DNA of 64,000 bases from Escherichia phage vB_Eco_mar003J3: the sequence record NC_048203.1. The stretch is one strand, 5' to 3'. The notes beneath the pieces are model-generated. The model saw only the letters and a list, made by a program, of their open reading frames with translations, ran no database searches and was not told where the DNA came from. Below are positions 9,081 through 64,000 of the stretch, piece after piece; within the stretch, counting starts at the first letter, position 1; the number at the start of each line of letters is the position of its first letter. A program made the translations under genes and the position numbers.

Positions 9081-11648
9081 TTGAAAATCGCAGTAGTTGA
9101 TAAAGCTCTAAATAACACTCGTTATGATAAACATTTCCAGCTATACGGCGAGGAAGTTGATGTATTCCATATGTGTAACGAGAAGTTGTCCGGTCGTTTG
9201 CTCAAAAAGCATATTACTATCGGGACTCCAGATAACCCGTTCGATCCGAACGATTACGATTTTGTTGTACTAGTTGGTGCTGAACCTTTCCTGTATTTCG
9301 CAGGTAAGAAAGGTATCGGTGATTATACTGGTAAACGTGTAGAGCATGGAGGCTATGCCAACTGGATTGCAAGTATTAGTCCAGCTCAGCTACACTTTAA
9401 ACCTGAAATGAAACCAGTTTTCGATGCAACTGTTGAAAGTATTCATGACATTATTAATGGTCGTGAGAAGATTGCAAAAGCTGGTGATTATCGTCCTATT
9501 ACTGATCCAGATGAAGCTGAAGAATACATCAAGATGGTGTATAATATGGTTATCGGACCTATCGCATTCGACTCCGAAACCTCAGCTCTGTATGCTCGTG
9601 ATGGTTATCTTCTTGGTGTTTCTATGTCTCACCAAGAGTATCAGGGTGTCTATATTGACTCTGACAGCATTACCGAAGTAGCTGTACATTATCTCCAGAA
9701 AATTCTGGATAGCAAGAATCATCAGATCGTTTTTCATAACTTGAAGTTCGATATGCACTTTTACTCCTATCATCTAGGACTTTCCTTCGAGAAAGCACAT
9801 AAAGAGCGTAGACTTCATGATACCATGTTGCAACACTATGTTCTTGATGAACGTCGTGGTACTCACGGCTTGAAATCTCTGGCTATGAAGTATACTGACA
9901 TGGGCGATTATGACTTTGAACTGGATAAGTTCAAGGATGATTATTGCAAGGCACATAAGATCAAAAAAGAGGATTTCAGCTATGATCTGATTCCATTTGA
10001 TATTATGTGGCCTTATGCTGCAAAAGATACCGATGCTACTCTGCGTCTGCATAATTTCTTCTTACCGAAAATTGAGAAGAATGAAAAGCTTTGCAGTCTA
10101 TACTATGACGTTCTGATGCCTGGTTGTGTATTCTTGCAACGTGTGGAAGATCGTGGTGTACCGATTTCTGTTGATCGCTTGAAAGAAGCTCAGTATCAGC
10201 TAACTCACAATCTGAACAAGGCTCGTGAGAAACTGTATACTTATCCAGAAGTCGTTCAGCTAGAAAAAGACCAGAACGAAGCATTTAACCCTAACTCTGT
10301 TAAGCAACTCCGTGTTCTTCTGTTTGATTATGTTGGTTTGACTCCAACTGGTAAACTGACGGATACAGGTGCAGATTCTACAAATGCAGAAGCTCTGAAT
10401 GAACTGGCTACTCAGCACCCGATTGCTAAAACTCTGCTAGAGATTCGTAAGCTGACTAAGCTGATCTCTACTTATGTTGAGAAGATTCTTCTGAGCATCG
10501 ATGCAGATGGTTGCATTCGTACCGGTTTCCACGAACACATGACTACTTCTGGTCGTCTGAGTTCTTCTGGTAAGCTAAACCTGCAACAGTTACCACGTGA
10601 TGAATCTATTATCAAGGGTTGTGTAGTAGCTCCCCCTGGATATCGTGTAATCGCATGGGACTTAACAACTGCGGAAGTTTATTACGCTGCTGTACTGTCT
10701 GGTGACAGAAACATGCAACAAGTATTTATCAACATGAAGAATGAGCCGGATAAATACCCTGACTTCCACTCAAACATCGCACACATGGTATTTAAACTGA
10801 CCTGTGAACCACGTGATGTTAAAAAGCTGTTCCCAGCTCTGCGTCAGGCTGCTAAGGCAATTACCTTCGGTATTCTGTATGGTTCTGGCCCAGCGAAAGT
10901 AGCTCATTCTGTTAACGAAGCTCTTCTGGAACAGGCTGCTAAGACAGGCGAACCGTTTGTTGAATGTACCGTTGCAGATGCTAAGGACTATATCGAAACT
11001 TACTTCGGTCAGTTCCCTCAGCTTAAGCGTTGGATTGATAAGTGCCACGATCAGATCAAGAACTTTGGATTCATCTATAGTCACTTTGGTCGTAAGCGTC
11101 GTCTGCACAACATCCATTCCGAAGATCGTGGTGTTCAGGGTGAAGAAATCCGTTCTGGATTTAACGCAATCATTCAGTCTGCATCTTCTGATAGCCTGTT
11201 GTTAGGTGCTATTGATGCTGATGAAGAAATCCTGTCACTGGGTCTAGGAAAAGAGATGAAGATCGTCATGTTGGTTCACGACTCCGTGGTTGCCATTGTA
11301 CGTGAAGATCTGATCGATCAGTATAACGAGATTCTGATTCGTAACATCCAGAAGGATCGTGGTATTAGTATCCCTGGCTGCCCAATCGGTATTGATTCTG
11401 ATTCTGAGAAAGGTGGTTCTCGCGACTACTCTTGTGGTAAGATGAAGAAACAGCACCCATCAATCGCTTGTATTGATGATGATGAATATACTCGTTATGT
11501 TAAGGGTGTATTACTCGATGCAGATTTCGAGTATAAGAAGTTAGCTGCAATGGATAAAGAGCATCCAGACCACAGCAAGTACAAGGATGATAAGTTTATT
11601 GCTGTATGTAAAGATCTGGATAATGTGAAAAGGATTTTAGGTGCTTGA
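9081..11648 (+). CDS. DNA polymerase, family A with 3'-5' exonuclease domain
   Basis: 855 aa (the size I recall for T5 DNA polymerase); exonuclease motif IAFDSETSALY and PolA motifs; listed start is TTG after GAGGAG. Confidence 0.95.
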   Translation: MKIAVVDKALNNTRYDKHFQLYGEEVDVFHMCNEKLSGRLLKKHITIGTPDNPFDPNDYDFVVLVGAEPFLYFAGKKGIGDYTGKRVEHGGYANWIASISPAQLHFKPEMKPVFDATVESIHDIINGREKIAKAGDYRPITDPDEAEEYIKMVYNMVIGPIAFDSETSALYARDGYLLGVSMSHQEYQGVYIDSDSITEVAVHYLQKILDSKNHQIVFHNLKFDMHFYSYHLGLSFEKAHKERRLHDTMLQHYVLDERRGTHGLKSLAMKYTDMGDYDFELDKFKDDYCKAHKIKKEDFSYDLIPFDIMWPYAAKDTDATLRLHNFFLPKIEKNEKLCSLYYDVLMPGCVFLQRVEDRGVPISVDRLKEAQYQLTHNLNKAREKLYTYPEVVQLEKDQNEAFNPNSVKQLRVLLFDYVGLTPTGKLTDTGADSTNAEALNELATQHPIAKTLLEIRKLTKLISTYVEKILLSIDADGCIRTGFHEHMTTSGRLSSSGKLNLQQLPRDESIIKGCVVAPPGYRVIAWDLTTAEVYYAAVLSGDRNMQQVFINMKNEPDKYPDFHSNIAHMVFKLTCEPRDVKKLFPALRQAAKAITFGILYGSGPAKVAHSVNEALLEQAAKTGEPFVECTVADAKDYIETYFGQFPQLKRWIDKCHDQIKNFGFIYSHFGRKRRLHNIHSEDRGVQGEEIRSGFNAIIQSASSDSLLLGAIDADEEILSLGLGKEMKIVMLVHDSVVAIVREDLIDQYNEILIRNIQKDRGISIPGCPIGIDSDSEKGGSRDYSCGKMKKQHPSIACIDDDEYTRYVKGVLLDADFEYKKLAAMDKEHPDHSKYKDDKFIAVCKDLDNVKRILGA

Positions 11649-49430: not shown

Positions 49431-50165
49431 TTAGGCAACTTTTAATTTATCAATGAATTGTTGCGGAGCGGTACTATAGTCTCCCCTTTCTTCCTCAGTC
49501 ATACCCTGCCAGCACATTTCTAAGCGCTGGCAAAGATATTGATAATCATTATCATCATCTAACGATTCATCAATAAAGGTTTCACCGATCAATGCTACGC
49601 CGATTGATAGGATATCGTTAACGGCTTGGGCGTCCAGTGTTTTGAATCCAGCACTTGCCGCCACCGATAATACGCCTTTATGATCATCAATCATCGTAAA
49701 ATCAGCGTTTGGATATAGCTGTTTAAATAGTTCAAAGTAATAGCTTTTGTATACAGCGTCTTTGCTGTGGTATATTTCGCTAACCTTATCCGCTTCAAAG
49801 TATTTGTGTAATGTATCGCGGGAGAATACGCGGATATTGCTATTTCCGCGCCCTCGCAAGCCTTGTTTACGCAAATAAAAGTAATCGCTTTTAGACATAA
49901 GGCGCGCGGTACAAATAACATTTAAAGTATTTGCATCATTCATACATTGGCGCATATATTCAACCAACGGCAATAAAGAATCCTGCATAATTAAATCATG
50001 TTTACAGGCTTCGCGGGAATACTTATTTAAATTTAAATTCCCGTTATCATCAAAGCAAGGCGCTACACGATGGAAAGAATTAATGATTGTGCCGTCCAGA
50101 TCCCAAATCATGACGCGGGAAATATGCGGGAAATTATGGGTAATATTCGTTTTAACTTGATTCAT
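49431..50165 (-). CDS. dmp: 5'-deoxyribonucleotidase (Dmp-like, HAD-type)
   Basis: 244 aa (the size I recall for T5 Dmp); WDLDGT HAD motif I. Confidence 0.8.
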   Translation of the reverse strand: MNQVKTNITHNFPHISRVMIWDLDGTIINSFHRVAPCFDDNGNLNLNKYSREACKHDLIMQDSLLPLVEYMRQCMNDANTLNVICTARLMSKSDYFYLRKQGLRGRGNSNIRVFSRDTLHKYFEADKVSEIYHSKDAVYKSYYFELFKQLYPNADFTMIDDHKGVLSVAASAGFKTLDAQAVNDILSIGVALIGETFIDESLDDDNDYQYLCQRLEMCWQGMTEEERGDYSTAPQQFIDKLKVA

Positions 50166-50713: not shown

Positions 50714-52378
50714 TTAGGCAAAGAATTTGCCATTTTTGAAATCAATCAAGGTACGTTGACCGTTTGCATATGTAATTAAATGCGTTTGCGTCCAGCTTGA
50801 CGCGCCAACGTTGTAACCCATATCGAGACTACCAGCAACGCCAGCGGTATAAACGCCGCCGTATATACTAGCCGTGTGAGTGTGGCCCGTGTTGAGGCGT
50901 CCTAACTTTTTAAACTGTTTAGGATTGCCCCGACTGCCGTTAATGCCGTTGTGACCATGTACACCGCATTCAATTCCTGCAATCTTGAAAGATTGGTCAG
51001 TAGTCAGGAAAATAGCGTTAAATTCGCAACCTGCAACGTTTCTAAGCGCATAATCCAATACGTTAAAGGTATCATCTTGTTTTGCAATAGCCGCATAAAT
51101 CGCAGCGTTTAGGCTGTGATACAGTTCGGCGTTTGCGGGGTCGTCTTTAATGTTAGCGTTACGATCATCAAGCCAACGGGATAACGCCAAATCATGATTG
51201 GATTCCACGATGATTGTTTGAGAAAAATCGCGCTCCATTGACTCCAACACGCGACCGGTATCAATGAGATCGTCAATAACTTTATCACGTCCGGCGGCGT
51301 ATTGTTTCGCAAGGAATACACCACTTGCGCGGTTGTGATGGTTACGCGATGTAAAATCATGCACATCATGAATAAACTGATATTTCGGTTTAAGAATATC
51401 AAGCAAGCTATTTTCGCCCACCCATGATGCAACGGCGCATTCATCATCTAATTTTTCGGCGTGAATATCGCCATATTGCAAGCCTAGAACATGATCGGAC
51501 GTTTCAAAACATCCGGTAGGCATAGCGCAAATATTCAAATCATAAAACATTCCGCTTTCATCCATTGTTTCAAGCTGGCGAACAAAAAATTCGCCGTCGT
51601 CGTCAAATTCTACCAACAAAGCGCCGTAATTATGCAGCGCCTCAGCTTTTTGACCTGCTTTCTGCTGAATATAGTTTTTAAGTGTAGCCGTTCCGGTGGA
51701 GTACATACGGCGCACTACTTCACCTTTTAACGCTGGCACACTTTCAGCGGTAATTTTAGCGTGACCAATTGCCAGACCTTCAATATTTAAAGCCGTGGCG
51801 GTTTCTGCGAATCCTGAAAGCGGATAGTCTGCCGTTGGTAACACGTTAATTTCAGCCATGAAAGCAAAACGGCGATTATTTAAAAATACGTTTTTCTCGC
51901 AAATATATTTATTAAATGCGGGATCGTATTTAATGCCTTCGTTACCTTCTCCATTCTGGAAGCCGTTTTTATTGTAAATGAATTTACTAACCAGCAATTC
52001 ACCGCCGATATATTCAGCGAATTGCTCAAGCACTTTCAAAAAGTTTTTATGTGGGAAAGTATTATTTTGAATCGACGTTAGAATAAAACGGCGACCGGAT
52101 TTAACTTCCCACTGTTCCACGGTACTAGAAACAATCCCCGCCGCTTCTGGGCGATCATCATTTTTAATCGCCTTTTCAGCTTTTGCCGCTTTCGGTTTCG
52201 CTGGCTTATTTGCTTCCAGCCAGTCACAAATTGCGGTCGAATGTTTCGGCGTGTCATAAACAGCTTTTGAAATATCGTCACAAACTTCCAATTTAGTAGC
52301 GCGTAAACGCTTGCCATAGAAATTAAAATCAGCGGCAAGTTTAGTGATCTGGGACTGTTTTTCTGCGGAAATATTCAT
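50714..52378 (-). CDS. A1: pre-early A1-like metallophosphoesterase
   Basis: 554 aa; calcineurin-like motifs GDIH, HDVHDF, ESNHD, GVHGHNG, GHTH; adjacent to dmp as in T5. Confidence 0.8.
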   Translation of the reverse strand: MNISAEKQSQITKLAADFNFYGKRLRATKLEVCDDISKAVYDTPKHSTAICDWLEANKPAKPKAAKAEKAIKNDDRPEAAGIVSSTVEQWEVKSGRRFILTSIQNNTFPHKNFLKVLEQFAEYIGGELLVSKFIYNKNGFQNGEGNEGIKYDPAFNKYICEKNVFLNNRRFAFMAEINVLPTADYPLSGFAETATALNIEGLAIGHAKITAESVPALKGEVVRRMYSTGTATLKNYIQQKAGQKAEALHNYGALLVEFDDDGEFFVRQLETMDESGMFYDLNICAMPTGCFETSDHVLGLQYGDIHAEKLDDECAVASWVGENSLLDILKPKYQFIHDVHDFTSRNHHNRASGVFLAKQYAAGRDKVIDDLIDTGRVLESMERDFSQTIIVESNHDLALSRWLDDRNANIKDDPANAELYHSLNAAIYAAIAKQDDTFNVLDYALRNVAGCEFNAIFLTTDQSFKIAGIECGVHGHNGINGSRGNPKQFKKLGRLNTGHTHTASIYGGVYTAGVAGSLDMGYNVGASSWTQTHLITYANGQRTLIDFKNGKFFA

Positions 52379-52731: not shown

Positions 52732-53166
52732 TTATTCGCCTGCGGCCTGTTTTACTTCATCGACAACGCCTAACAATTGCGCCATGGCTTCCAGCGTTTC
52801 CAGTTTTGCACTTTCCAAACTTGCCAGATCGTCGGCGTCTTTGATAATGCCTGAATCAATGGCGTGTTTAGCGATAACGCGCACATAGTGAGCTTTACGG
52901 ATTGAGCTACCGCCGCCAACTTTGCGCGGCTTGTCGCTTTTCTGGTAGGCTTTTGCACTGGTCAATTTAGAACGTACAGAGACAGGGGAAGCCGCGCCAA
53001 CGGCGGCGGCGATTTCTTTTAAGCCGTCACTGTTAGCAAATTCAACGCCATTTTTTTCGATCATTTCAGAATACAAAGAGACAGCTTTCTGCGTGTTTTC
53101 TTCATTCCAAGAGAATTTTGCGGCTTTTTCGGTTTTAACGTTAGACATAGTAAATACTCCGTTCAA
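52732..53166 (-). CDS. pre-early A2-like protein (putative)
   Basis: 144-aa ORF upstream of the A1-like gene, size close to the ~15 kDa I recall for T5 A2; assignment by synteny only. Confidence 0.45.
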   Translation of the reverse strand: MNGVFTMSNVKTEKAAKFSWNEENTQKAVSLYSEMIEKNGVEFANSDGLKEIAAAVGAASPVSVRSKLTSAKAYQKSDKPRKVGGGSSIRKAHYVRVIAKHAIDSGIIKDADDLASLESAKLETLEAMAQLLGVVDEVKQAAGE

Positions 53167-54552: not shown

Positions 54553-54636
54553 ATACATATAAATTAATGAGAAATAATAAATATGAGAAACTATCGGGCT
54601 AAGTGAGAACCACTATCATTTAACTTATACCCAAAG

Positions 54637-54714: not shown

Positions 54715-54734
54715 TACTGTATAAATATACAGGG
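54715..54734. promoter_or_regulatory. LexA/SOS-box-like palindrome
   Basis: TACTGTATAAATATACAGGG fits CTGT-N8-ACAG; part of inverted repeat A. Confidence 0.4.
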
Positions 54735-54981: not shown

Positions 54982-56007
54982 ATGTCTACTGTAAGAATTG
55001 CAGTACCAGCAAACGCCACTATTATTAAGGGTAGTTTGCGCAACCTGCTAGACGGATCAAGTCTAGCAAGCCTACAGCTAGACGGATCAAGTCTAGCAAG
55101 CCTACAACATACGGCGGCAATGGTTGAAAAGATTCACGATGAAATTTTAGATAATAATGATACTCATTATTGTTTAAGTGATTTCACACAATTACTAGAC
55201 CCTACCCGCGTTCTAGTGCTTTACAACCGTGACTATCACATCATGCGAAATCAGCGGGGAAGAGATATTGATTTTATCATTGTAGGTCACGACGAAAAAA
55301 GCTATATTGCCCGTGGTTACAATGTACAAGAAAAAGAAATGGTTTTCGCTACTCGCGTAAATGGTATTAATTCCAGCGATGTAGAAGATTTACTATCTAG
55401 TATTTGTGGCGAATTGACAAGCGCCATTAAACGTGCTGATAGTTACGCAATCGAAACAACTGGCGTATTGTGTTTTGGACGCGCTAGAGGTAACATGTTG
55501 ATCCCTAACGATTATTTAGAGTATGGGAATGAATCAAACGTTGCAAACGCTGGATTTACACTTTTACCGCTTGACAATGTAACAAAACAGGCTGTACAAT
55601 CTCAAACTTCAAGCGCAAATGCGCAAACTACTGAAAATAAAGGAAATATTATGTCTAAAGTATCTTCTATCGTTGCTGCTAATAAATCCGCCGTTGTAAA
55701 CGCTGCTAAACTGGAAGTGGGTAAAATTGCACTGACTCAAGTCACAAAAGTAGCGGCGAAAAAAGCACCGTTTATGATTAAAGGGTATATTGATACGCCG
55801 ATTGGTCGTGTAGTGATCGCTAACCTGCTGAGTGTAGCGGTTGACCAGTACGCCCCGACTAATGCGAAAGCTAAAGCGGTAGCAGGCGCGGCAATGGAAG
55901 CGGCAATGTTGGAAATGGTACAAAGTTTCAATATTGCTGAAATGATCGATGAAATGGTAAAAGGTATTGACATTTCAACCTTTACCCAAAATGCTGAAAG
56001 CGAGTAA
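54982..56007 (+). CDS. hypothetical protein (341 aa) with internal 10-aa tandem duplication
   Basis: RBS GAGGGAG; N-terminal LDGSSLASLQ x2; possible internal start MSKVSSIV after AAAGGAAA. Confidence 0.6.
   Translation: MSTVRIAVPANATIIKGSLRNLLDGSSLASLQLDGSSLASLQHTAAMVEKIHDEILDNNDTHYCLSDFTQLLDPTRVLVLYNRDYHIMRNQRGRDIDFIIVGHDEKSYIARGYNVQEKEMVFATRVNGINSSDVEDLLSSICGELTSAIKRADSYAIETTGVLCFGRARGNMLIPNDYLEYGNESNVANAGFTLLPLDNVTKQAVQSQTSSANAQTTENKGNIMSKVSSIVAANKSAVVNAAKLEVGKIALTQVTKVAAKKAPFMIKGYIDTPIGRVVIANLLSVAVDQYAPTNAKAKAVAGAAMEAAMLEMVQSFNIAEMIDEMVKGIDISTFTQNAESE
55048..55107. repeat. 30-bp tandem duplication, two copies
   Basis: CTAGACGGATCAAGTCTAGCAAGCCTACAG / ...ACAA, one mismatch. Confidence 0.9.
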
Positions 56008-56035
56008 TAATTAGTCTAATGTAAAGTTTTGTAAA

Positions 56036-56061
56036 GGTCGCCCTAATCGGCGGCCTTTTTT
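56036..56061 (+). terminator. rho-independent terminator
   Basis: GGTCGCC-CTAATC-GGCGGCC hairpin followed by TTTTTT. Confidence 0.65.
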
Positions 56062-56125
56062 GTTATAATGCCTTTACACCGAAACGGTGGATTGAAAATT
56101 TTCCCCGATTTCTAGGAGGCGTTAA

Positions 56126-56353
56126 ATGGTACATTCATCATCTTCTGCAATTTTTAATGGTATGGAATGGGTATCCGTTCCCACTATTGTAAGCGTTATG
56201 GTTTCGGAGTTTGGGATTGGTAAAACTTATGTTACCATTCAGGAGCTTTACGACAATGACAAGATTGATCAGCAAACAGCCGGATTTTTGCTGGATGAAT
56301 TGAAAGCTAACCACTGCACCAAAAAGCAAGCGGCAAAAATTGTTTTAATGTAA
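56126..56353 (+). CDS. hypothetical protein (75 aa)
   Basis: RBS TAGGAGG. Confidence 0.5.
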   Translation: MVHSSSSAIFNGMEWVSVPTIVSVMVSEFGIGKTYVTIQELYDNDKIDQQTAGFLLDELKANHCTKKQAAKIVLM

Positions 56354-56360
56354 TTAATAA

Positions 56361-56388
56361 CGGGGCGTTACTTTCGCCCCTAATTTCT
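56361..56388 (+). terminator. hairpin / partial terminator
   Basis: GGGGCG-TTACTTT-CGCCCC followed by TAATTTCT. Confidence 0.5.
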
Positions 56389-56401
56389 AGGAGCTAATAA
56401 A

Positions 56402-56551
56402 ATGGTTATTTTTCGATCAGTTCTAGCAGGTATCTTGGGCGCTATTTTATCGTTGTTTGCAATAGCTTTCGGTGTTCATGCCGTTATTATCGGCGCGGGT
56501 ATCGCGGGGTTTTCTTACCTGTTAGGCTGTATGACTGGTAAAGGGGGATAA
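56402..56551 (+). CDS. small membrane protein (49 aa, two predicted TM helices)
   Basis: RBS TAGGAGCTAATAAAATG; hydrophobic Gly/Ala-rich sequence; below ORF-track cut-off. Confidence 0.45.
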   Translation: MVIFRSVLAGILGAILSLFAIAFGVHAVIIGAGIAGFSYLLGCMTGKGG

Positions 56552-56553
56552 AA

Positions 56554-56766
56554 ATGTTAAAAAATGTAAGCCTTGCCCGTTCTAAAGGTTTTAAGCTGGT
56601 GGATGTTAACACGTTCGAGCGTCCAGATTGTAAAATCGAATATGTAGCACGCAACAAAAACGCGTTTCGTGTTACAGAAAAGAAATTTGACAAGCGCGGC
56701 AATTTGGTAGCCGAAACGGTTAAACACTTTGCCACCTTTTACGCTGCGTTTCGGGGAGTGTTATAA
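56554..56766 (+). CDS. hypothetical protein (70 aa)
   Basis: RBS AAGGGGGA; tightly packed operon. Confidence 0.5.
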   Translation: MLKNVSLARSKGFKLVDVNTFERPDCKIEYVARNKNAFRVTEKKFDKRGNLVAETVKHFATFYAAFRGVL

Positions 56767-56767
56767 A

Positions 56768-57112
56768 ATGGTAATTTACGAGGGCAACCGATTTGTAACT
56801 AATTGCCGTCCGGCATTATTAGCAAACTATTTAAATCAGCTTTCACCAGTTTATAAAGGCGTGGTTAATATCTATGAGGGCAAAGCACATTATAAAATTT
56901 CTGCCGTTGTCGCCCGTGAACTAGCGTTTCAATTTTTAACTTTTGGGTCTTGTGACGTTCAGGTTATGGGGGAAGCGTTAATAGCGGAAAATGAAAATGA
57001 ATTTATTGACATTTTCCGCAAAGTATGTACAGAGCGCCTGATTATGAAAGGCGCGTATATTCAATCAACCGCTGAAAGTATCGAAACAGCGTTTCGAAAG
57101 GTGGCGCAATGA
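56768..57112 (+). CDS. hypothetical protein (114 aa)
   Basis: ATG 56768 with GGGAG RBS; inside ORF-track frame 56729..57112. Confidence 0.5.
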   Translation: MVIYEGNRFVTNCRPALLANYLNQLSPVYKGVVNIYEGKAHYKISAVVARELAFQFLTFGSCDVQVMGEALIAENENEFIDIFRKVCTERLIMKGAYIQSTAESIETAFRKVAQ

Positions 57113-57294
57113 CTAGAAATGAAGCTGTTAAAGCTATGTTAGAAGGTAAAAAAGTAACTCATCGTTATTTTTCCATGCATGAATATTTATTCATGAAATA
57201 TGAAGTGATCACCACGGAGGATGGTTATAAATTTAATCATGAATTTTATAGCCGTGAAATGTTTAATGATGGCTGGCAGCTTTATTATGAATAG
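57109..57294 (+). CDS. hypothetical protein (61 aa)
   Basis: ATGA overlap with upstream gene; RBS AAGGTGG. Confidence 0.45.
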   Translation: MTRNEAVKAMLEGKKVTHRYFSMHEYLFMKYEVITTEDGYKFNHEFYSREMFNDGWQLYYE

Positions 57295-57420
57295 CTGGTG
57301 GCGAAAAACACAAAGCCATAAATCTAATAATACCGCTGGGAAACATTCCCAGCGTTTACGATTTGGTAATGGCTTCACAATGATATTGATAATCATTCTC
57401 ATTCTAGGAGCAATGGCGTT

Positions 57421-57615
57421 ATGAGTGATAAAATTGTTGTAACTAAAACTACTGTTACCGTTGATACTTTCTTTGTGCCTGATACGCTGGAAAATCGGCA
57501 AGCGGTGGAGCGTGGCGATTATGATAAAGTGATTTATGATAACGATGGTTACTATCAACATTTGGTAGACTCCTACGGCGAAAGCGAAAAGATCACACAT
57601 CGACTACCAGACTAA
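57421..57615 (+). CDS. hypothetical protein (64 aa)
   Basis: RBS AGGAG; followed by terminator. Confidence 0.5.
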   Translation: MSDKIVVTKTTVTVDTFFVPDTLENRQAVERGDYDKVIYDNDGYYQHLVDSYGESEKITHRLPD

Positions 57616-57621
57616 TAATAA

Positions 57622-57650
57622 CGGGGCGCAACTATCGGCCCCGTCTTTTC
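57622..57650 (+). terminator. rho-independent terminator
   Basis: CGGGGC-loop-GCCCCG hairpin followed by TCTTTTCT. Confidence 0.7.
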
Positions 57651-57703
57651 TGGCCTTCCTCAAATTTCCCCTTATTAAAATACCTCCGCCAAAAATAAAC
57701 GCG

Positions 57704-57730
57704 TTAGAATGCGTTACAGAGCGTTTTAGA
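57704..57730. repeat. 27-bp direct repeat, copy 2
   Basis: Identical to 54281-54307. Confidence 0.85.
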
Positions 57731-57760
57731 GCTATATTAGAGTTATTCACTACGCAGGAA

Positions 57761-57780
57761 TACTGTATAAATATACAGTA
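57761..57780. promoter_or_regulatory. LexA/SOS-box-like palindrome
   Basis: TACTGTATAAATATACAGTA: one mismatch from the idealised SOS box TACTGTATATATATACAGTA. Confidence 0.45.
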
Positions 57781-57788
57781 GAATAACC

Positions 57789-57809
57789 TGTTGATAAGTC
57801 TGTTGATAA
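57789..57809 (-). promoter_or_regulatory. two DnaA-box-like 9-mers (TTATCAACA)
   Basis: TGTTGATAA at 57789-57797 and 57801-57809; one mismatch from TTATCCACA. Confidence 0.35.
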
Positions 57810-57861
57810 CGCCCCAAAATCGCTAGGATTTTGTCAAGTCAAATCGTGCTGTTAATAAACC

Positions 57862-57870
57862 TGTGGATAA
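57862..57870 (-). promoter_or_regulatory. DnaA box (TTATCCACA on - strand)
   Basis: TGTGGATAA, exact consensus. Confidence 0.5.
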
Positions 57871-57902
57871 CTTAAATAACAGTGTTTCTCACTTCGCTTT
57901 GT

Positions 57903-58044
57903 AAATGCGAGTCATTCTCATTATCATTAGCGTTTCCCTTCCTAAATGCAAATCATTCTCATTCGTATTCCGGTAGTCAAATGATAACTGTTCTCATTCG
58001 CATTCAACTTCTCAAATGCGAATCATTCTCATTATCATTCGCAT
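57903..58044. repeat. four direct repeats of AAATGCGAATCATTCTCATTatCATT-like unit
   Basis: Copies begin at 57903, 57944, 57979, 58013 (period ~35-41 bp). Confidence 0.8.
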
Positions 58045-58053
58045 TTCGGCAGG

Positions 58054-58076
58054 CAGGGCAATTTGCCCTGCGCTTT
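58054..58076 (+). terminator. palindrome plus T-run (terminator-like)
   Basis: CAGGGCA-ATT-TGCCCTG followed by CGCTTTTG. Confidence 0.45.
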
Positions 58077-58077
58077 T

Positions 58078-58677
58078 GTGCAAATCCGACATTTGCCCCC
58101 ACGGATTACGTGCCAGTGTGCATGTGCGAATCCGACAATTTTTGGTAGTGTGCAAATCCGATGGGAAATATTTTTTATATGTGCGAATCCGACAATGAAT
58201 TTTCCTAAAAACTCCAGCAATCCGCAACTGCGATGCAATCCAGCTGGATTTACTAGAATATGTGCAAAACCGACAAGTGTTAAGGTGTGCGAATCCGACA
58301 AGATTTTTGTGACTTCGATTGGAGGGTGTGTGATTGTGTGGGTTTGGGGAGAAGTGCGAATCCGATGAGATTTTGGGAGGAACTACGGAAGGAGCAGCGG
58401 TGATGGTGCTTTAGCACCGATTTGCTGCATTTTTGGGGATAATGCGGGATGTTTTGGCTAGAATTGAGATTAGTGGAGATAAAGCGAAATTTTATTAGCA
58501 AAATGGGGCAAAATCGCTTGACAAGTGAAAATTCCTGTGGCTCTAAAAACTCAGGCAATCATGGGCCTTCGGCCCGAAATAATGCTGCTATTTTCAGTGT
58601 TCCTAAAAACTTTGGAGACTCCTATCAATGTGCAAATCCGACCATAAATTTCTAGAAACATAATGTGCAAATCCGAT
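58078..58677. repeat. iteron-like array: nine copies of (T)GTGCRAATCCGAYA
   Basis: Copies at 58078, 58124, 58150, 58181, 58262, 58287, 58354, 58630, 58665, all same orientation, irregular spacing. Confidence 0.85.
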
Positions 58678-58721
58678 AGCAATTTCCAGAAATGTGTTTT
58701 GGAAAAATGTCTCCTAGAAAT

Positions 58722-58793
58722 AACCGCCCTCCCTATAACCGCCCTGTATAGGAAACCGCCCTAGGATATGTAACGTTGGAGAGAAACTGCCCT
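58722..58793. repeat. four direct copies of AAC(C/T)GCCCT
   Basis: At 58722, 58737, 58754, 58785 with 15-31 bp spacing. Confidence 0.7.
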
Positions 58794-59210
58794 AGAATGC
58801 GTGAGAAACAGATTTAAAGTTTAGTGTAAACTCTAGAGTTAATGCTCAACTATTCCTAGAAACTTAGGAGTCTACTAGAAAGTGTTGTGCCATCCTAGCA
58901 GATGAGCGGCAACCGGTGTATCATCTTGAACACAAATATTGCCTTTAAATATTATAAGGTAAATAAAAGTTAATATACCCCCATTTCATGAGAGTTAGCC
59001 CCTCTAGGCGCGTGCGATTTGATACATCCTCCTGAGTCTCGGGGAGGAAGAACAATTGACGAGAACCTGCAAGCAGAACCGTCATCAAGTATTTTCCTAC
59101 GAGGAATGATGTAAATCTACGGCCTAGAGGTAAAAACAAGTTGATGTTTTTAATCTATGAGATTATTATAACATGCAGCTCAAATAATGTCAAGAAGATT
59201 TTGCTAACGT

Positions 59211-59936
59211 TTATAGATCGTGATTGACTTTGAGTATGACTCCCTTCGATGCCATGAAAAGGAATGTTGCTAGGTAAGATGACTCGGAATTTAGCGCAGA
59301 ATAATCTACACTTCCTCTAGGTCTAGTTTCTTGTTTAGTGTCAAGAATTGTTTCGATATCAAACTTAACAGATCTTGCAACTTTTCTAGCTTGTTCAGGA
59401 TCACGTAAGATTTCAAAGTGAGCAGCATCTAGAATATGGTTAGATGATGTTGATTCGTCAACTATACTTAGATGAACCTGCGCAAGTGTAGATACGATTC
59501 CTAGCTTTAATTCAGATAGAGAAGAATATGGTGGTTCTACTTTCTTTGTAAGTCTAGGGAGATGATCGTATTTACATTGCTTTTGAGGAATCATCAGAAT
59601 ATTAGGATAACATTCTAAACATGACTTTGCATTTCCTTCTTTAAAATGCGGGAGTTCTTTATCTGCAAAGACGTGGAATGAATCTGCTGAAAATCCTTTA
59701 ATAGTAGGATCAACAGTTTGAATCAGACGACGTAAACTAATATATGAAGGAGCTAATGTGACTTCTTCTGCATCTTTATTATATTTAGGTTGCCCACTAG
59801 CATTAATATATGCTGGATAAAACTCTGCACAAAATGCTACTGCATGAGCTTCTAACTCATTAAGTTCGGAAACATTCTTTCCATTACAAGCTCTAGCTAA
59901 CTTAATAATCTCTGCTAAATTCTTTTTTATACTCAT
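59211..59936 (-). CDS. hypothetical early protein (241 aa)
   Basis: Long ORF, first of a tightly packed - strand operon. Confidence 0.6.
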   Translation of the reverse strand: MSIKKNLAEIIKLARACNGKNVSELNELEAHAVAFCAEFYPAYINASGQPKYNKDAEEVTLAPSYISLRRLIQTVDPTIKGFSADSFHVFADKELPHFKEGNAKSCLECYPNILMIPQKQCKYDHLPRLTKKVEPPYSSLSELKLGIVSTLAQVHLSIVDESTSSNHILDAAHFEILRDPEQARKVARSVKFDIETILDTKQETRPRGSVDYSALNSESSYLATFLFMASKGVILKVNHDL

Positions 59937-60241
59937 ATATAATCATCCGGTTTTGTTTTAGTTTTTGTTACTGATTTCACTGAAGGATCTAACTTAATCC
60001 ACGTAAACCCTAGCTGCTCAGATAAGTGAGATATATTTCTAGGTGTTATTTTTATATTTGGAGGTAACTTAAATACTAGGTCTTTAAGTAACTTCATATC
60101 ATCTGAACCAATGAAGAGAATATACTGCATATCTTCTTTTTGTTCATATTCGTTTTCAGATAATGTACTAACTCCGACTGTATGTTTATTGAGTGTGGCC
60201 ACCTTACAGCGGCCTACAGTAAACTGAGTAATTATATCCAT
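59933..60241 (-). CDS. hypothetical protein (102 aa)
   Basis: 4-bp overlap with downstream gene. Confidence 0.5.
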   Translation of the reverse strand: MDIITQFTVGRCKVATLNKHTVGVSTLSENEYEQKEDMQYILFIGSDDMKLLKDLVFKLPPNIKITPRNISHLSEQLGFTWIKLDPSVKSVTKTKTKPDDYI

Positions 60242-60852
60242 TAACGACCTCTAGCCTTATCTGCATCAATAGCTTCGAATACTTTCGTTAACATTTCTTC
60301 AAGCTCACCTTCTTTGCTAGGATTGCTCAAACGAATAGTATATGAGTTCCTAGAAACTCCTGAGTCTTCTTGTGCTCCGCGATCTTTTGCAAAGCCCATC
60401 ATTGCAACGCCAGCTTTATTCCACTCGTCTACGCTAGATGCTTCCCCAAATTTATATGATTGCGTATTGCTTACCACGCCACCACAAGGAACATTGTGCA
60501 TATCCGACATTAATCTTTTATCAGAATTATTCAGCATTGCGATTGGCCCTGACTGCCACGGATCCCGAATAGTCACTGGAGTACTAGGGCGATTCACCTC
60601 AGTCTTCACGAGTTTGTATCCAGCATCGATTAGTGCATTAATCAGATTATCAGCCGGGATACGAGCCGTGCCAAAGATAGCACGAGCATTCATAAGCTTA
60701 GCCTGAAATTCCTTGCAACCTTGAAGATCAGTGTGCAAAAACGACAGTTGCATAGATTTAAACTGTACTGTAGCAGTCAGATCTTTAAAGCTGTAATCCC
60801 ATGTGTCGAGTTCATGATCTGCAACTACTTTAATGGTTTGTTGTGTAAACAT
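60241..60852 (-). CDS. hypothetical protein (203 aa)
   Basis: Long ORF in operon context. Confidence 0.6.
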   Translation of the reverse strand: MFTQQTIKVVADHELDTWDYSFKDLTATVQFKSMQLSFLHTDLQGCKEFQAKLMNARAIFGTARIPADNLINALIDAGYKLVKTEVNRPSTPVTIRDPWQSGPIAMLNNSDKRLMSDMHNVPCGGVVSNTQSYKFGEASSVDEWNKAGVAMMGFAKDRGAQEDSGVSRNSYTIRLSNPSKEGELEEMLTKVFEAIDADKARGR

Positions 60853-61037
60853 TATCTATTCTCCAGTTTATCTAACAGCTTACGAGCTGCGATATTATGT
60901 TGTTTAATTTCTCGGTTAAGAATTTCATTTTCACTATTTAATTCTAGATTCTTGGTATTAAGACTACTACAGCAAACCACTAACCCTAGAACTGCCACTA
61001 GAGACGCTACTAATATAACGAGAAATAATATTTCCAT
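60852..61037 (-). CDS. small membrane protein (61 aa)
   Basis: N-terminal TM helix then coiled-coil-like tail. Confidence 0.45.
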   Translation of the reverse strand: MEILFLVILVASLVAVLGLVVCCSSLNTKNLELNSENEILNREIKQHNIAARKLLDKLENR

Positions 61038-61270
61038 TATTTAATTCCCATGTATCTTTTTAGGTATTCGATGAAGTCTTCAGCTTTATGCTCTTGACTG
61101 CCCTGAGCCACGAATAACTTTAGAACCTCACGCTGTTGTTTAAGAACAGAGACTTCTCTCCGCAATTTCACAGTATCGTCAATGATCTGGTTAGCATAAC
61201 GAGTCTTGCGCACAGCGGTATTGATAGCGAAGACTAGTGCGATTAGTAAAATAATTAATACATATTCCAT
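61037..61270 (-). CDS. small membrane protein (77 aa)
   Basis: N-terminal TM helix then charged coiled-coil-like tail. Confidence 0.45.
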   Translation of the reverse strand: MEYVLIILLIALVFAINTAVRKTRYANQIIDDTVKLRREVSVLKQQREVLKLFVAQGSQEHKAEDFIEYLKRYMGIK

Positions 61271-61557
61271 CAGTTACTCCAGATTAGCATCCAGCTCTTG
61301 TCGAACGTGGCTGCTCTGTTAATTAATTCGCCCATAGAAACGTTATTGTTGTCTATGGCTTCTTGTACAAACTCTTTACCGAAATCATCTACTAGGTATT
61401 CTGTACCATTTATAATAATCTTGTAGAGAGTTGGGACTAAAGGATGTTGATGATTAAGAGGACTCTCGTTAACAATTATCTCATTCCTTCCCCACGTCGT
61501 TTTGAACATTTTATGGGATAGTAGAGCTAATGGATTTGACCAGACTACGTACTCCAT
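61270..61557 (-). CDS. hypothetical protein (95 aa)
   Basis: ORF in operon context. Confidence 0.45.
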   Translation of the reverse strand: MEYVVWSNPLALLSHKMFKTTWGRNEIIVNESPLNHQHPLVPTLYKIIINGTEYLVDDFGKEFVQEAIDNNNVSMGELINRAATFDKSWMLIWSN

Positions 61558-62023
61558 CTTTCTTTAACTCCTGTTTTAACTTTTGATCTTTATTATACCA
61601 AATTATGTGCTCACCGTCAACTACAAATTTGTGGAAAGGTGCTGGTACGGTATACACTCCATATTCTGTTAAGCGTGTTACAACTTTATGAGCACATAAT
61701 CGGCAACCATGTCCTTCTAAGTGAGACCGTGCAGTTTGTAAGAAGTAACCATCGTGATCTGGGCAATAGATCTCAACCTGCTGTTGCATAGTTCTATACT
61801 TAACTCTTTCATATCCAAAGAACTTACCATGTGCTTCTACAGCTCTCCTGATAAAGATTAGATTAAGTGCATCTTGCTGGAAGTCTATATGAAGTTGTTT
61901 GAGTTTAATTCTATTAATAGATCCATCTGATTTAGTGAATCTATTTATGGGAAACTGTAATGCTTCCTCATAAAGTAATTCGTTTATTTTATCTCTCATA
62001 GTATACACGAAAGGCCAGAACAA
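61511..62023 (-). CDS. hypothetical protein (170 aa), Cys/His-containing
   Basis: CPDHDGYF...HGCRLCAH, possible zinc-binding. Confidence 0.5.
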   Translation of the reverse strand: MFWPFVYTMRDKINELLYEEALQFPINRFTKSDGSINRIKLKQLHIDFQQDALNLIFIRRAVEAHGKFFGYERVKYRTMQQQVEIYCPDHDGYFLQTARSHLEGHGCRLCAHKVVTRLTEYGVYTVPAPFHKFVVDGEHIIWYNKDQKLKQELKKDGVRSLVKSISSTIP

Positions 62024-62043
62024 TTAAGTCCTGGCCTCTAGGA

Positions 62044-62493
62044 TTAGTGAAGTTGCTTGCCGTTTAAGGCCATATCAGCAGTTTCCAGAAGAGATTCAGT
62101 AATCTCACGAGAAACTAGATATTCATCAATTGAGTGGCGGCGTTTATAAGCGTAAGCATTAACAATCAGATCTAGAGCACCGAGAACATCATGAACAGTT
62201 ACTTCTTCATTATTGTCTAGCTCTTCTTGGGTAATCTCAATTAACTGGCCAACTGCCATTAAAAGCCCAAGAATATCTGCTGTTTCACCTGCCACCAGCG
62301 GATTAGCACATCCTACTGTAAGATCGAAAGCATGATTGACAATTGACTGTCCATCAACGCTTCCTTCCTCAATCTGCTTCTCCAACTGCTTCATCTGCTC
62401 TAGCACTGGATTTTTCTTTTGTGTCATGGTAAAGATTTCCTGTATCAGTTGGAAGGAATGCCGATTGTGCCTTCGGCGGATGTTGTTTAGCAA
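62044..62493 (-). CDS. hypothetical protein
   Basis: 149-aa frame; real start probably internal (MTQKK...). Confidence 0.5.
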   Translation of the reverse strand: MLNNIRRRHNRHSFQLIQEIFTMTQKKNPVLEQMKQLEKQIEEGSVDGQSIVNHAFDLTVGCANPLVAGETADILGLLMAVGQLIEITQEELDNNEEVTVHDVLGALDLIVNAYAYKRRHSIDEYLVSREITESLLETADMALNGKQLH

Positions 62494-62836
62494 TCCAGTT
62501 GAGGATCAGTACACGGCTAGGAACGATATCGGTATTATACCAGAAGTCATGAACCCAATGTCGTGCATCTTCGAACTTACCGAACTTATATGCTTTCTTG
62601 AACAGTTCAAAACCAAAGCAGTCAGGTGCAAAATCTACGTCACGATAAAGAATTACCTTAGAACCGGTGAGATCTTGAATCGCTGCGTTAATCTCTGTAT
62701 GTGAGAACTTCGTCTCATGGAAAGTATTAAAGAAGCGGTAATTAAAACGTCCGTTCGTTTCGACAAACAACTGGATGAATAAATCATTAAATTGGCCATC
62801 AAACCAGTAATTCTGTAATCTTTGCAGTGCTGTCAT
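62369..62836 (-). CDS. hypothetical protein (155 aa)
   Basis: ORF in operon context; partial overlap with downstream ORF. Confidence 0.5.
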   Translation of the reverse strand: MTALQRLQNYWFDGQFNDLFIQLFVETNGRFNYRFFNTFHETKFSHTEINAAIQDLTGSKVILYRDVDFAPDCFGFELFKKAYKFGKFEDARHWVHDFWYNTDIVPSRVLILNWIAKQHPPKAQSAFLPTDTGNLYHDTKEKSSARADEAVGEAD

Positions 62837-63033
62837 TTACGAACTCCATTTATTGCTGCTATAACGCCTTCATACATGAAAGGAAGAACTTGTGAAATGT
62901 GGAAATCTTGAACTGTCCAACCAGCCTCTTGATACATAATGTTAATGATTGCACAACTTAACATAAAAGCTGGTAGAATTATAAAGTAATCCCACGTTGC
63001 TTTCTGCAAGTTAGGGTTATAAAAATTAATCAT
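62833..63033 (-). CDS. small membrane protein (66 aa)
   Basis: Hydrophobic core segment. Confidence 0.4.
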   Translation of the reverse strand: MINFYNPNLQKATWDYFIILPAFMLSCAIINIMYQEAGWTVQDFHISQVLPFMYEGVIAAINGVRK

Positions 63034-63133
63034 CTATTTTTAAGTCTCCGTATTACTTTGGCCTGCTCAACGATTATGAAAACGGCAACCACTAAACCGA
63101 AGATTAGGATTGCCGTAACAGTTGTTAAATCAA

Positions 63134-63466
63134 TCAAGGCAGACGCCAAACGTAATGGGCTGTCCAAAGTGTTTCTGGTTCATCGTCATTATGCATCACT
63201 AGGGACTCTGGAGAATAACTATTAGCTAGTTCTTTACGAACCATTTCACGTTCTTCACCAGTTTCAATATTTTTAACAATCACTTTCATATTAAGAGGAG
63301 TTAGCTCAGAAAGCGGTCGCCATAAGTCTTCCAGATCTGTTTTAGTTTTATTCTGGATGGATTGCAAGACTTCTAGTGTCTGAGGATTTACATTAATAAA
63401 CCCACGTTCAGTAACAAAACCTAGAAACTCGTCCAGCAGGATTAATTCACTAAAATTAAGCTTCAT
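63134..63466 (-). CDS. hypothetical protein (110 aa)
   Basis: ORF in operon context. Confidence 0.5.
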   Translation of the reverse strand: MKLNFSELILLDEFLGFVTERGFINVNPQTLEVLQSIQNKTKTDLEDLWRPLSELTPLNMKVIVKNIETGEEREMVRKELANSYSPESLVMHNDDEPETLWTAHYVWRLP

Positions 63467-63701
63467 CTTTCAGAATATCCTCGATCATGTCAGAAGATTG
63501 CTGTAGTTCGTCTACAATGCGTTTAACGTCAGTTTTTGTCACTTTACCTGCCAACATCGTGAACAACATAGCAACAATGATGATAGGGACTGGCAGAACA
63601 AACAGTGCTACTTTACCAACGTTCTTTGGAGTCCAGGTGTGATACTTAGTAACCAGAATACCAACAATAACCAGATAAAAAGCTAAGATAATTAACATCA
63701 T
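63456..63701 (-). CDS. small membrane protein (81 aa)
   Basis: Two hydrophobic helices. Confidence 0.45.
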   Translation of the reverse strand: MMLIILAFYLVIVGILVTKYHTWTPKNVGKVALFVLPVPIIIVAMLFTMLAGKVTKTDVKRIVDELQQSSDMIEDILKDEA

Positions 63702-63979
63702 TTCTTAATCTCCGTGATTACCTGAGCGCGCAGGACTTTAATAGGAAGTTTAGTGTTACCAACAAGAGCTTCAATATTCTTTAGCTTTTCTTTGAGAAGA
63801 TCTGAACGTCTTTGTGTGTCCTCGATATCTTTTTCAGCAGCTATATATTTTTCCCAGAGCGCATTATTGGTGGCCTTCATTGCTTCCATATTTTTATTAG
63901 CATTAAGAATGCCAATGATTCCACCAATTGCTGCTAAAGTAGTGAGAACCAGCAATCCAATTAAAATTTCTGTAATCAT
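63698..63979 (-). CDS. small membrane protein (93 aa)
   Basis: N-terminal TM helix then coiled-coil-like tail. Confidence 0.45.
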   Translation of the reverse strand: MITEILIGLLVLTTLAAIGGIIGILNANKNMEAMKATNNALWEKYIAAEKDIEDTQRRSDLLKEKLKNIEALVGNTKLPIKVLRAQVITEIKK

Positions 63980-64000
63980 TTAAATACTCCATTAGCACAC

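Follow-up and report, generated by a model that had tools for sequence, protein, structure and literature searches.

We analysed a 64,000-nucleotide stretch of DNA from Escherichia phage vB_Eco_mar003J3 (NC_048203.1), referred to below as the window, and within it the segment at positions 57,903 to 58,076, in which four related repeat units are followed by a palindrome and a short run of T next to an array of iterons. The segment is almost certainly this phage's version of 'Repeat Region 3' of phage T5, that is, of the DRC repeats and palindromes in the injection stop signal (iss) region. Its repeat units score at the level of genuine Escherichia coli Fur sites, which makes Fur a strong sequence-based prediction as the binding protein, and its palindrome overlaps a predicted nick site. 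We consider the overall picture, in which a predicted binding array for host Fur lies beside a nick site and a weak terminator, to have about an even chance of being correct.

The identity of the region is clear from alignments. Positions 57300–59200 match 524 phage records at 60–99% identity, all of them T5-like (Demerecviridae), with Escherichia phage TrudiRoth as the top match at 96.8%. T5 aligns over 100% of the query at 78.8% identity (421 bp) through its positions 9338–9785. This part of the left terminal repeat of T5 is annotated as 'injection stop signal (iss)' and carries the feature 'major DNA single-chain interruption', and a 38-nucleotide block at the palindrome and nick is identical in the two phages. 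As in T5, the segment has the pre-early operon on one side and the first early genes on the other: it belongs to an extended non-coding stretch that follows the plus-strand pre-early operon and occupies the right end of the terminal repeat. The modules also come in the same order, running from DnaA boxes through the repeat units and the palindrome to the iterons, and this order is common to T5, S114, Seabear, Gostya9, Spc35 and phiLLS. The two phages differ in that there are four units here, with GCGAAT or GCAAAT cores, and about six in T5, with GAGAAT; the hairpin has the loop ATT here, whereas T5 has a perfect palindrome.

The published order of T5 Repeat Region 3 is IRD'-spacer-IRC' with DnaA boxes, DRC 1–4 among palE–palI, palJ, and nine DRD repeats (Davison 2020, bioRxiv 10.1101/866236). 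The GC-rich hairpin at 58053–58071, described below, is probably palJ. Repeat Region 3 is reportedly also the subject of work by Heusterspreute in 1987, Wang in 2005 and Davison in 2015, as relayed by the 2020 account. The repeat and palindrome element is already published in T5 with its function unexplained, and what is new here is its own unit sequence and copy number. The preliminary description of this DNA, which was made from the letters only, missed the identity with the T5 injection-stop repeats, and its observation of repeats and a palindrome stands. The functions of the T5 repeats have been called impossible to guess, and Fur, LexA and nicks are not mentioned in that paper (Davison 2020).

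The repeat family is well defined. A 20-mer, AAATGCGAATCATTCTCATT, is matched at 57903, 57944 and 58014 with one, one and no mismatches respectively (the copies read AAATGCGAGTCATTCTCATT, AAATGCAAATCATTCTCATT and AAATGCGAATCATTCTCATT); 0.03 matches are expected by chance, and none of 100 dinucleotide-preserving shuffles reached three. The copy at 57979 (AAATGATAACTGTTCTCATT) carries five mismatches to the 20-mer (75% identity) and is best seen as a quasi-palindromic unit of the same family in reversed orientation. The unit starts are spaced 41, 35 and 35 bp apart, and no strand is assigned to the units. Unit 1 (57903–57934, AAATGCGAGTCATTCTCATTATCATTAGCGTT) is of the T5 'DRC' type, and unit 2 (57944–57969, AAATGCAAATCATTCTCATTCGTATT) is similarly close to the 20-mer. 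Unit 3 (57979–58004, AAATGATAACTGTTCTCATTCGCATT) is the diverged, inverted copy and forms an inverted repeat with unit 4 (arms 57980–58004 and 58015–58039, 72%), while unit 4 (58014–58046, AAATGCGAATCATTCTCATTATCATTCGCATTT), the exact match, is a 33-bp near-palindrome of about five hexamers with arms of 13 nucleotides at 58014–58026 and 58034–58046 (92%). The repeat search recovered in this way the short inverted segments that had been noted inside the units, and it placed one extra copy outside the four-unit segment, at 57387–57404. What had been described as four direct copies is more accurately three copies within one mismatch plus one diverged and inverted copy, and of the starts given for them only 58013 needs correction, being one base early.

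A Fur motif was derived by an unseeded Gibbs search for a 19-mer in 14 promoter regions of E. coli K-12 (fepA-fes, fepD-entS, fepB-entC, fhuA, cirA, fiu, fecA, fecI, tonB, exbB, fhuE, fhuF, sodA and ryhB), all of them established as Fur-repressed, and was scored against a background with the AT-rich composition of the window. The motif that emerged, AATGAAAATGATTATCATT, is the classical Fur box with its register moved by 3 nucleotides, and its member sites include AATGAGAATGATTATTATT of ryhB and TATGAGAATGGTTATCATT of fecI. With leave-one-out scoring the training sites range from 10.5 to 22.2 bits (median 17.4), and units 1–4 score 17.0, 17.8, 21.6 and 18.4 bits. Unit 1 holds three overlapping matches in 6-bp phase, at 57904 (17.0 bits), 57910 (14.1) and 57916 (11.4); unit 2 holds two, at 57945 (17.8 bits) and 57951 (12.3); unit 3 holds one, at 57980 on the minus strand (21.6 bits, AATGAGAACAGTTATCATT); and unit 4 again holds three, at 58015 (18.4 bits), 58021 (17.7) and 58027 (14.1). 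The extra matches lying 6 and 12 bp off in units 1 and 4 score 11.4–17.7 bits, and these two units show a feature of Fur operators, namely at least three adjacent hexamers of the NAT(A/T)AT type in a 6-bp register (57904/57910/57916 and 58015/58021/58027).

The units are made of 6-bp-phased AATGAN and NTCATT hexamers around a GAATCATTC core. An idealised unit core, AATGAGAAT-C-ATTCTCATT, is a 19-bp palindrome that lies one symmetric position away from the extended Fur palindrome AATGATAAT-C-ATTATCATT, and the halves AATGAGAAT or AATGCAAAT are common to the phage units and to genuine sites (ryhB, fecI, fhuA, exbB, tonB and fepA). Positions of low information in the Fur motif coincide with the variable positions of the units. 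Counted against the classical 19-mer consensus, the units match at 13–15 of 19 positions, and the shifted register of the unseeded search fits them better. The units are therefore comparable with E. coli Fur operators such as those of ryhB, fecI, fhuA and exbB (classical consensus GATAATGATAATCATTATC) both in their 19-bp scores, which fall in the genuine range, and in their 6-bp phasing; they differ in forming a tandem array of 4–13 copies in phage non-coding DNA, over no recognisable strong promoter. The promoter-like sites at the units, 57899–57927 and 58009–58038, are both weak (9/12). The box GATAATGAGAATCATTATT is presumably the aerobactin operator. An iron box of this sequence is listed in PMC10665472.

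The match is specific to this part of the genome. Five Fur matches of at least 15.2 bits fall within the 161-bp array and ten in the whole terminal repeat, and none was found in window positions 1–48399 or 58101–64000, the 54 kb outside the terminal repeat; every match of this strength in the 64-kb window lies inside the 9.7 kb of DNA that is transferred in the first step. In a simulated window about 0.3 such matches are expected per 64 kb. In 55,485 bp of K-12 DNA taken from outside the training promoters every score stayed below 13 bits, and none of 200 column-permuted Fur matrices gave a match in the array. A profile of AATG-anchored 19-mers drawn from 36 arrays correlates with the Fur matrix over the non-anchored columns with r = 0.80, a value equalled by none of 2000 permutations; for AATG-anchored 19-mers from the rest of the window r = 0.47. 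The suggestion that the repeats could be further protein-binding sites is thereby supported in kind, in that each unit scores as a Fur-type operator and is predicted to be bound.

Other regulators were considered by eye. The AAATG-N11-CATTT arms of the units resemble a Zur box in spacing, but the centre agrees at only about 11 of the 23 positions of the Zur consensus GAAATGTTATAATATAACATTTC. The consensus sequences of ArgR, IHF and CpxR do not fit the units.

The array is widespread among relatives. In T5, S114, Seabear, Gostya9, Spc35, phiLLS and two Klebsiella Sugarlandvirus phages, 3 to about 13 units are located after the last DnaA-type box and before the first iteron. Across these phages the unit is about 23 bp long and reads CCACTTCTTAAATG[A/C][G/A]AATCATT, often followed by CTCATT or ATCATT; its copy number, order and orientation vary freely. 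The array segment measures 229–364 bp, with length differences not divisible by three, and the array is therefore treated as non-coding. Open reading frames (ORFs) do overlap it, and some records annotate tiny coding sequences there, but this length variation argues against a coding role. Among distinct T5-like arrays from IMG/VR, 25 of 25 carry 4–8 Fur matches of at least 15.2 bits despite their varying copy number. Conservation in related phages had been proposed as a check on the repeats and the palindrome alike: the Fur-type units are present in all 25 arrays, whereas the hairpin and the T-run are not kept in every relative.

More distant phages show the modules in other combinations. Pectobacterium phage My1, from another subfamily, has a five-unit Fur-type array (up to 23.8 bits) that abuts the iterons without a palindrome. 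Aeromonas phage AhSzw-1 has scattered Fur-type sites of 17–22 bits with DnaA- and LexA-type boxes nearby, a recurrence of all three kinds of site with little nucleotide homology, and Proteus phage M4H10_20 has one Fur-type site along with DnaA- and LexA-type boxes. The non-coding region of Serratia phage Slocum contains no Fur-type site and a different repeat, with CCTGCGCTT and the iterons kept, and that of Vibrio phage Chester contains no Fur-type site, with DnaA boxes and one LexA-type box. The modules can thus occur apart from one another, and the Fur-type array, though common, is not universal. In Slocum (locus L059, 3960–4100), two copies of the other repeat, AATAACGTAAGGTGAYTAATGATT, stand between the DnaA boxes and CCTGCGCTT plus iterons, and this is a module swap.

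An alternative to Fur is that the units bind a phage protein, either A2 or an unknown early protein, serving DNA release, cutting or packaging of the terminal repeat, or guidance of the nickase, and that the likeness to Fur sites is coincidence or mimicry. Among the pre-early products A2 alone is annotated as DNA-binding (phrog_1725), and the T5 record states that second-step transfer requires it; the conserved flanks of the unit (CCACTTCTTAAATG) reach beyond the Fur motif; and the units adjoin the DRD repeat family, which has no match to a host factor. However, Vibrio phage Chester lacks an array although A2 is annotated in it, which argues against the array as a universal target of A2; Slocum is array-free too. 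A Fur-like protein encoded by the phage itself was also looked for, and neither a Fur domain nor any other Pfam DNA-binding domain occurs in the ten pre-early products that were tested. An operator-grade match to a host motif with zero background matches is unlikely to arise by chance, and the neighbouring sites are consensus sequences of the host factors DnaA and LexA. We regard binding by a phage protein as unlikely, although it deserves to be kept in mind.

It is also conceivable, but improbable in our view, that the signal is the DNA structure itself, with hairpins, cruciforms or bends stalling passage through the tail or membrane channel and no sequence-specific protein involved. Folded as single-stranded DNA, a 186-nucleotide segment reaches −26.9 kcal/mol compared with −13.6 kcal/mol for shuffles (z = −5.1). 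The calculated shear point of first-step-transfer DNA in T5, about 9618 (Davison 2020), falls within the T5 unit array, an agreement of position only, and in-vitro ejection pauses at nicks (PMC2771126). Against a structural signal, the number (3 to 13), order and orientation of the units vary and what stays conserved is the unit motif, so that no particular long-range structure is conserved; the fold score is accounted for by the quasi-palindromic character of each unit alone; and transfer is double-stranded.

The palindrome CAGGGCA-ATT-TGCCCTG is present at 58054–58070, with the T-run, as had been described, and extends to an 8-bp stem, GCAGGGCA/TGCCCTGC, at 58053–58071. On the 3' side are GCGC at 58070–58073, which overlaps the stem, and only four T at 58074–58077. 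The first iteron, TGTGCAAATCCGACA, starts at 58077, right after the palindrome and T-run, so the location beside the iteron array had been given correctly; the iterons (TGTGCGAATCCGACA, corresponding to the 'DRD' repeats of T5) lie on the plus strand at 58077–58373, with more at 58629 and 58664, and the repeat search counted eight copies in this family.

The T5 record places a 'major DNA single-chain interruption' at 9748/9749 on the minus strand, at GCGC/TTTT (the slash marks the nick), within the identical block GCCCTGCGC/TTTTGTGCAAATCCGACATTTGCCCCCA. In the phage studied here the corresponding predicted major nick site is CCCTGCGC/TTTT at 58066–58077. The minus strand from 58077 to 58066 reads AAAA/GCGCAGGG, in agreement with the consensus that the T5 record gives, 5'-NPu pGCGCN-3', and a nick between 58074 and 58073 would leave 5'-pGCGC. 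On the plus strand, the four T5 major nicks (loci L001 9748, L064 1337, L065 1747 and L066 1574) read (C)CCTGCGC/ or CCCGCGC/, and all four have TTAC(G/A) 31–36 nucleotides past the nick, so that the nicking activity may recognise a signal in two parts. A second element of this kind, GATTACG, is found here on the plus strand at 58104–58110, 31–37 nucleotides past the nick, and TTACG is kept in every aligned relative, including the Klebsiella phages. The two-part pattern occurs once in the window (58066–58110) against 0.1 expected. The pattern is too strict for T5's own 64.8% site, and the counterpart of that site in the window could therefore escape detection.

The site thus resembles the T5 major nicks (7.9, 18.5, 32.6 and 64.8%) in having CCCTGCGC/T on the same strand at the orthologous position and in the common context GCGCAGGGC plus TTAC(G/A). 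It differs from them in that the left arm of the palindrome is arranged in this way only here, the 32.6% site having an inverted partner across the nick. This arm is missing at the 18.5% and 64.8% sites of T5 and at the orthologous site of the Klebsiella phages and Slocum, and is therefore not part of the general nick context; My1 is without the nick site altogether. Where the hairpin is missing, the conserved sequence is CCTGCGC, which the T5 annotation marks as the major single-strand interruption. In Seabear, the PhageTerm repeat end (record 8522; L003 1084–1090) is the last C of GCGC, an end that a minus-strand 5' end at the nick would yield, and this is an indirect hint only. Ejection of T5 DNA in vitro has been found to pause at nick positions (PMC2771126). 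From these comparisons we consider it likely that the right arm of the palindrome together with GCGC is the conserved 7.9% major nick site of T5, on the minus strand.

Two observations on related phages concern the same spot. The terminal repeat in T5 and Slocum ends about 400–470 bp to the right of the boundary given for Seabear, which may be an artefact, PhageTerm having placed the end of the repeat at the nick and not at the true terminus. In SPC35-like phages (L024 3766–3809 and similar Tequintavirus loci) the palindrome is a perfect 24-mer, AGCGCAGGGCAATTGCCCTGCGCT, which therefore carries the GCGC nick motif on both strands.

The preliminary description had read the palindrome and T-run as a possible terminator for the upstream cassette. 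Developed into a full alternative, the palindrome would be a back-up rho-independent terminator against read-through from the pre-early operon, and the repeats would be unspecified operator-like sites. The hairpin is terminator-like on the plus strand only: its 8-bp GC-rich stem, 3-nucleotide loop and T-rich tail satisfy a simple terminator rule, as does the T5 counterpart (9729–9746), and the region is stable as RNA (−22.1 kcal/mol, z = −3.07). The stem is kept across loops of 3, 4, 9 and 10 nucleotides and shows a compensatory G>A / C>T change in locus L058 (CAGAGCA / TGCTCTG), seen in only one of 15 distinct hairpin variants; where the hairpin is present, its sequence indicates that it is selected as a structure. 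However, a terminator belonging to the operon itself stands about 400 bp upstream, at 57621–57650 on the plus strand (stem ACGGGGC / GCCCCGT followed by CTTTTCT), orthologous to the 'putative rho-independent transcription terminator' of T5 at 9275–9296, and there is no convincing promoter between the two terminators, the best promoter-like sites scoring 9/12. The tail also departs from a typical terminator in being a short TTTT followed by GTG, and it is changed to TTAT in Gostya9, the L030/L032 locus and the Klebsiella phages; the hairpin itself is variably conserved and not present in the Klebsiella Sugarlandvirus phages, Slocum and My1. Finally, the conserved core is the nick consensus. A search for mapped transcript ends of T5 found none. 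The terminator claim therefore retains a weak standing, and we think it rather unlikely that termination and unspecified operators explain the segment. We conclude that the conserved function of the palindrome spot is as a nick site, with terminator activity possible and secondary.

The combination of a Fur box and a terminator raises the further idea of a Fur-repressed small RNA of about 145 nucleotides, like RyhB or PrrF, with its promoter over unit 1 or 2 and the palindrome and T-run as its terminator. The Rfam PrrF model (RF00444) gives a weak full-length match to 57935–58080 (26.9 bits, E = 0.013–0.066), the promoter-like site at 57899–57927 lies upstream of the start of this match, and the RNA fold has z = −4.5. 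PrrF and RyhB loci are indeed similar in having a Fur box, about 110 nucleotides and a terminator hairpin. But the score is far below the Rfam gathering threshold of 90 bits, and the alignment is carried only by the model's Fur box, which aligns to unit 2, and its terminator, which aligns to the palindrome; a PrrF homologue is ruled out on these grounds. The promoter is weak, and there is no conserved RNA body, the variation in segment length (229–364 bp) and copy number among relatives being incompatible with a conserved RNA. We consider a small RNA very improbable.

On its other side the array adjoins further sites for host factors. An SOS (LexA) box, TACTGTATAAATATACAGTA, at 57761–57780 matches the well-known SOS consensus at 19 of 20 positions, and a regular-expression search found DnaA-type boxes at 57789, 57801, 57850 and 57862 (to 57870), corresponding to the IRD'-spacer-IRC' of T5. 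DnaA boxes in the T5 repeats have been described, and LexA sites are not named as such in the same work (Davison 2020). Near-perfect LexA boxes with the core CTGTATAAATATACAG occur both at 57761–57780 and at 54715–54734, one per inverted DnaA-box module, and CTGTATA(AA/TT)TATACAG variants are found in most of the T5-like loci examined; in the Proteus, Aeromonas and Vibrio relatives, too, DnaA boxes have LexA-type boxes in their vicinity.

DnaA boxes next to direct-repeat arrays are also found in iteron plasmids and oriC, and the non-coding block of DnaA boxes, units and iterons could in principle be a plasmid-type replication origin or a partition-like locus. The region has no match among 72,556 plasmids searched, which speaks against a plasmid origin, and there is no adjacent Rep gene. 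In addition, T5 origins have been mapped near the centre of the genome, and the replication genes are silent while only this DNA is inside the cell (Davison 2020), making an origin or partition role a most unlikely one.

Several points weigh against the picture of a Fur array beside a nick. Column 14 of the Fur matrix is the most informative (A, 0.91 in E. coli), and in the phage units it is C, A or T, often C. A matrix built from 11 literature boxes in the classical GATAAT register gives the units only 12.5–16.4 bits, and the conserved 9-nucleotide spacer between units, CCACTTCTT, belongs to no Fur motif. The Fur similarity, and hence the predicted binding, comes from sequence alone. Mutants in fur are fully sensitive to T5, and Fur is therefore not essential; the lack of an array in Slocum and Chester and the single site in the Proteus phage mean that the array is no universal requirement for two-step transfer. 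As for the nick, it is a prediction in this phage; the T5 nicks at 18.5%, 32.6% and 64.8% were annotated by consensus match, and the T5 record states no basis for the position of the 7.9% nick. Taking both sides together, we lean towards the view that host Fur binds the units, and regard it as a real possibility, somewhat short of an even one, that Fur binding is the function for which they have been selected.

If host Fur does bind, several Fe2+-Fur dimers would load onto the units as the array enters the cell, at the point where the first step of DNA transfer gives way to the second. With the LexA box and the DnaA boxes added, the result would be a block of DNA bound by host proteins at which transfer pauses. 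The right palindrome arm and GCGC would provide the recognition context of the minus-strand nick, and the hairpin may act as a weak terminator on the plus strand. Such a complex could serve to anchor or block the DNA as it enters, to insulate the pre-early operon from a leftward minus-strand promoter (59193–59165), or to sense the iron state of the host. In its broadest form, which we put forward only tentatively, the proposal is that the T5 injection-stop repeats are a set of consensus sites for three host proteins (a Fur array, LexA and paired DnaA) beside the 7.9% nick, through which the phage would hold, insulate or time-release its DNA according to the iron, damage and replication status of the host.

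That T5 transfers its DNA in two steps has been known since the 1960s, and to our knowledge no one has yet defined the stop signal that acts in cis. Should the repeats prove to be Fur operators accompanied by LexA and DnaA sites, the problem of the stop signal becomes testable by standard tools, and a strictly lytic phage would be putting a host metalloregulator to an unusual use. Several relatives use receptors under Fur control (FhuA and FepA) for entry. For annotators, the identification of the palindrome as a nick site would serve as a warning that small ORFs called here are spurious. A full-text literature search for links between T5 and Fur boxes, or between T5 and the trio of Fur, LexA and DnaA, returned nothing relevant, and neither the Fur assignment nor the extended nick motif was found in the searchable literature; earlier mention in Wang 2005, Heusterspreute 1987 or Davison 2015 is possible.

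The genes around the segment are arranged as in T5-like phages. The pre-early genes include homologues of dmp (49431–50165, minus strand), A1 (50714–52378) and A2 (52732–53166); the pre-early operon immediately upstream of the segment runs from 54982 to 57615 on the plus strand, and the early genes downstream start from 59211 on the minus strand.

The outlying member of the repeat family, AATGATATTGATAATCATTCTCATT (57379–57403, no strand assigned), is the strongest Fur-type site of the window, with 24.4 bits at 57385 and 19.8 bits at 57379, and it matches the classical Fur consensus at 17 of 19 positions. The site at 57385 has AATGAGAATGATTAT in common with the ryhB operator (15/15). It lies between a hairpin at 57334–57354 and the ribosome-binding site and ATG of the ORF at 57421–57615 (phrog_6973, T5.017-like), and could be a Fur-controlled internal promoter; T5 has no Fur-type match at the place corresponding to 57385. 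The ORF at 57221–57424, which overlaps the site, has no family match and may be spurious.

Further Fur-type matches are found elsewhere in the terminal repeat. One in dmp, at 49532–49559 (GATATTGATAATCATTATC), agrees with the classical consensus in 18 of 19 positions and reaches 19.3 bits under the K-12 matrix. It falls within coding sequence, on Asp/Asn/Tyr codons; its counterpart in T5 dmp scores 16.4 bits at position 231, and it is either a chance product of codon usage or a real site. Two more occur at 54602–54620 and 55156–55174: one, of 15.6 bits, adjoins the DnaA boxes of 'Repeat Region 2' (T5 counterpart 6098), and the other, of 16.3 bits, lies inside an ORF like gene 011.

The leftward promoter mentioned above is a perfect sigma-70 consensus promoter (TTGACA, 17 nucleotides, TG, TATAAT) at 59193–59165 on the minus strand, just past the last minus-strand early gene. 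It points to the left into the 1.5-kb 'non-coding' region, toward the iterons, the nick and the Fur-type array, and its counterpart in T5 (L001 10879–10851) matches at 11 of 12 positions.

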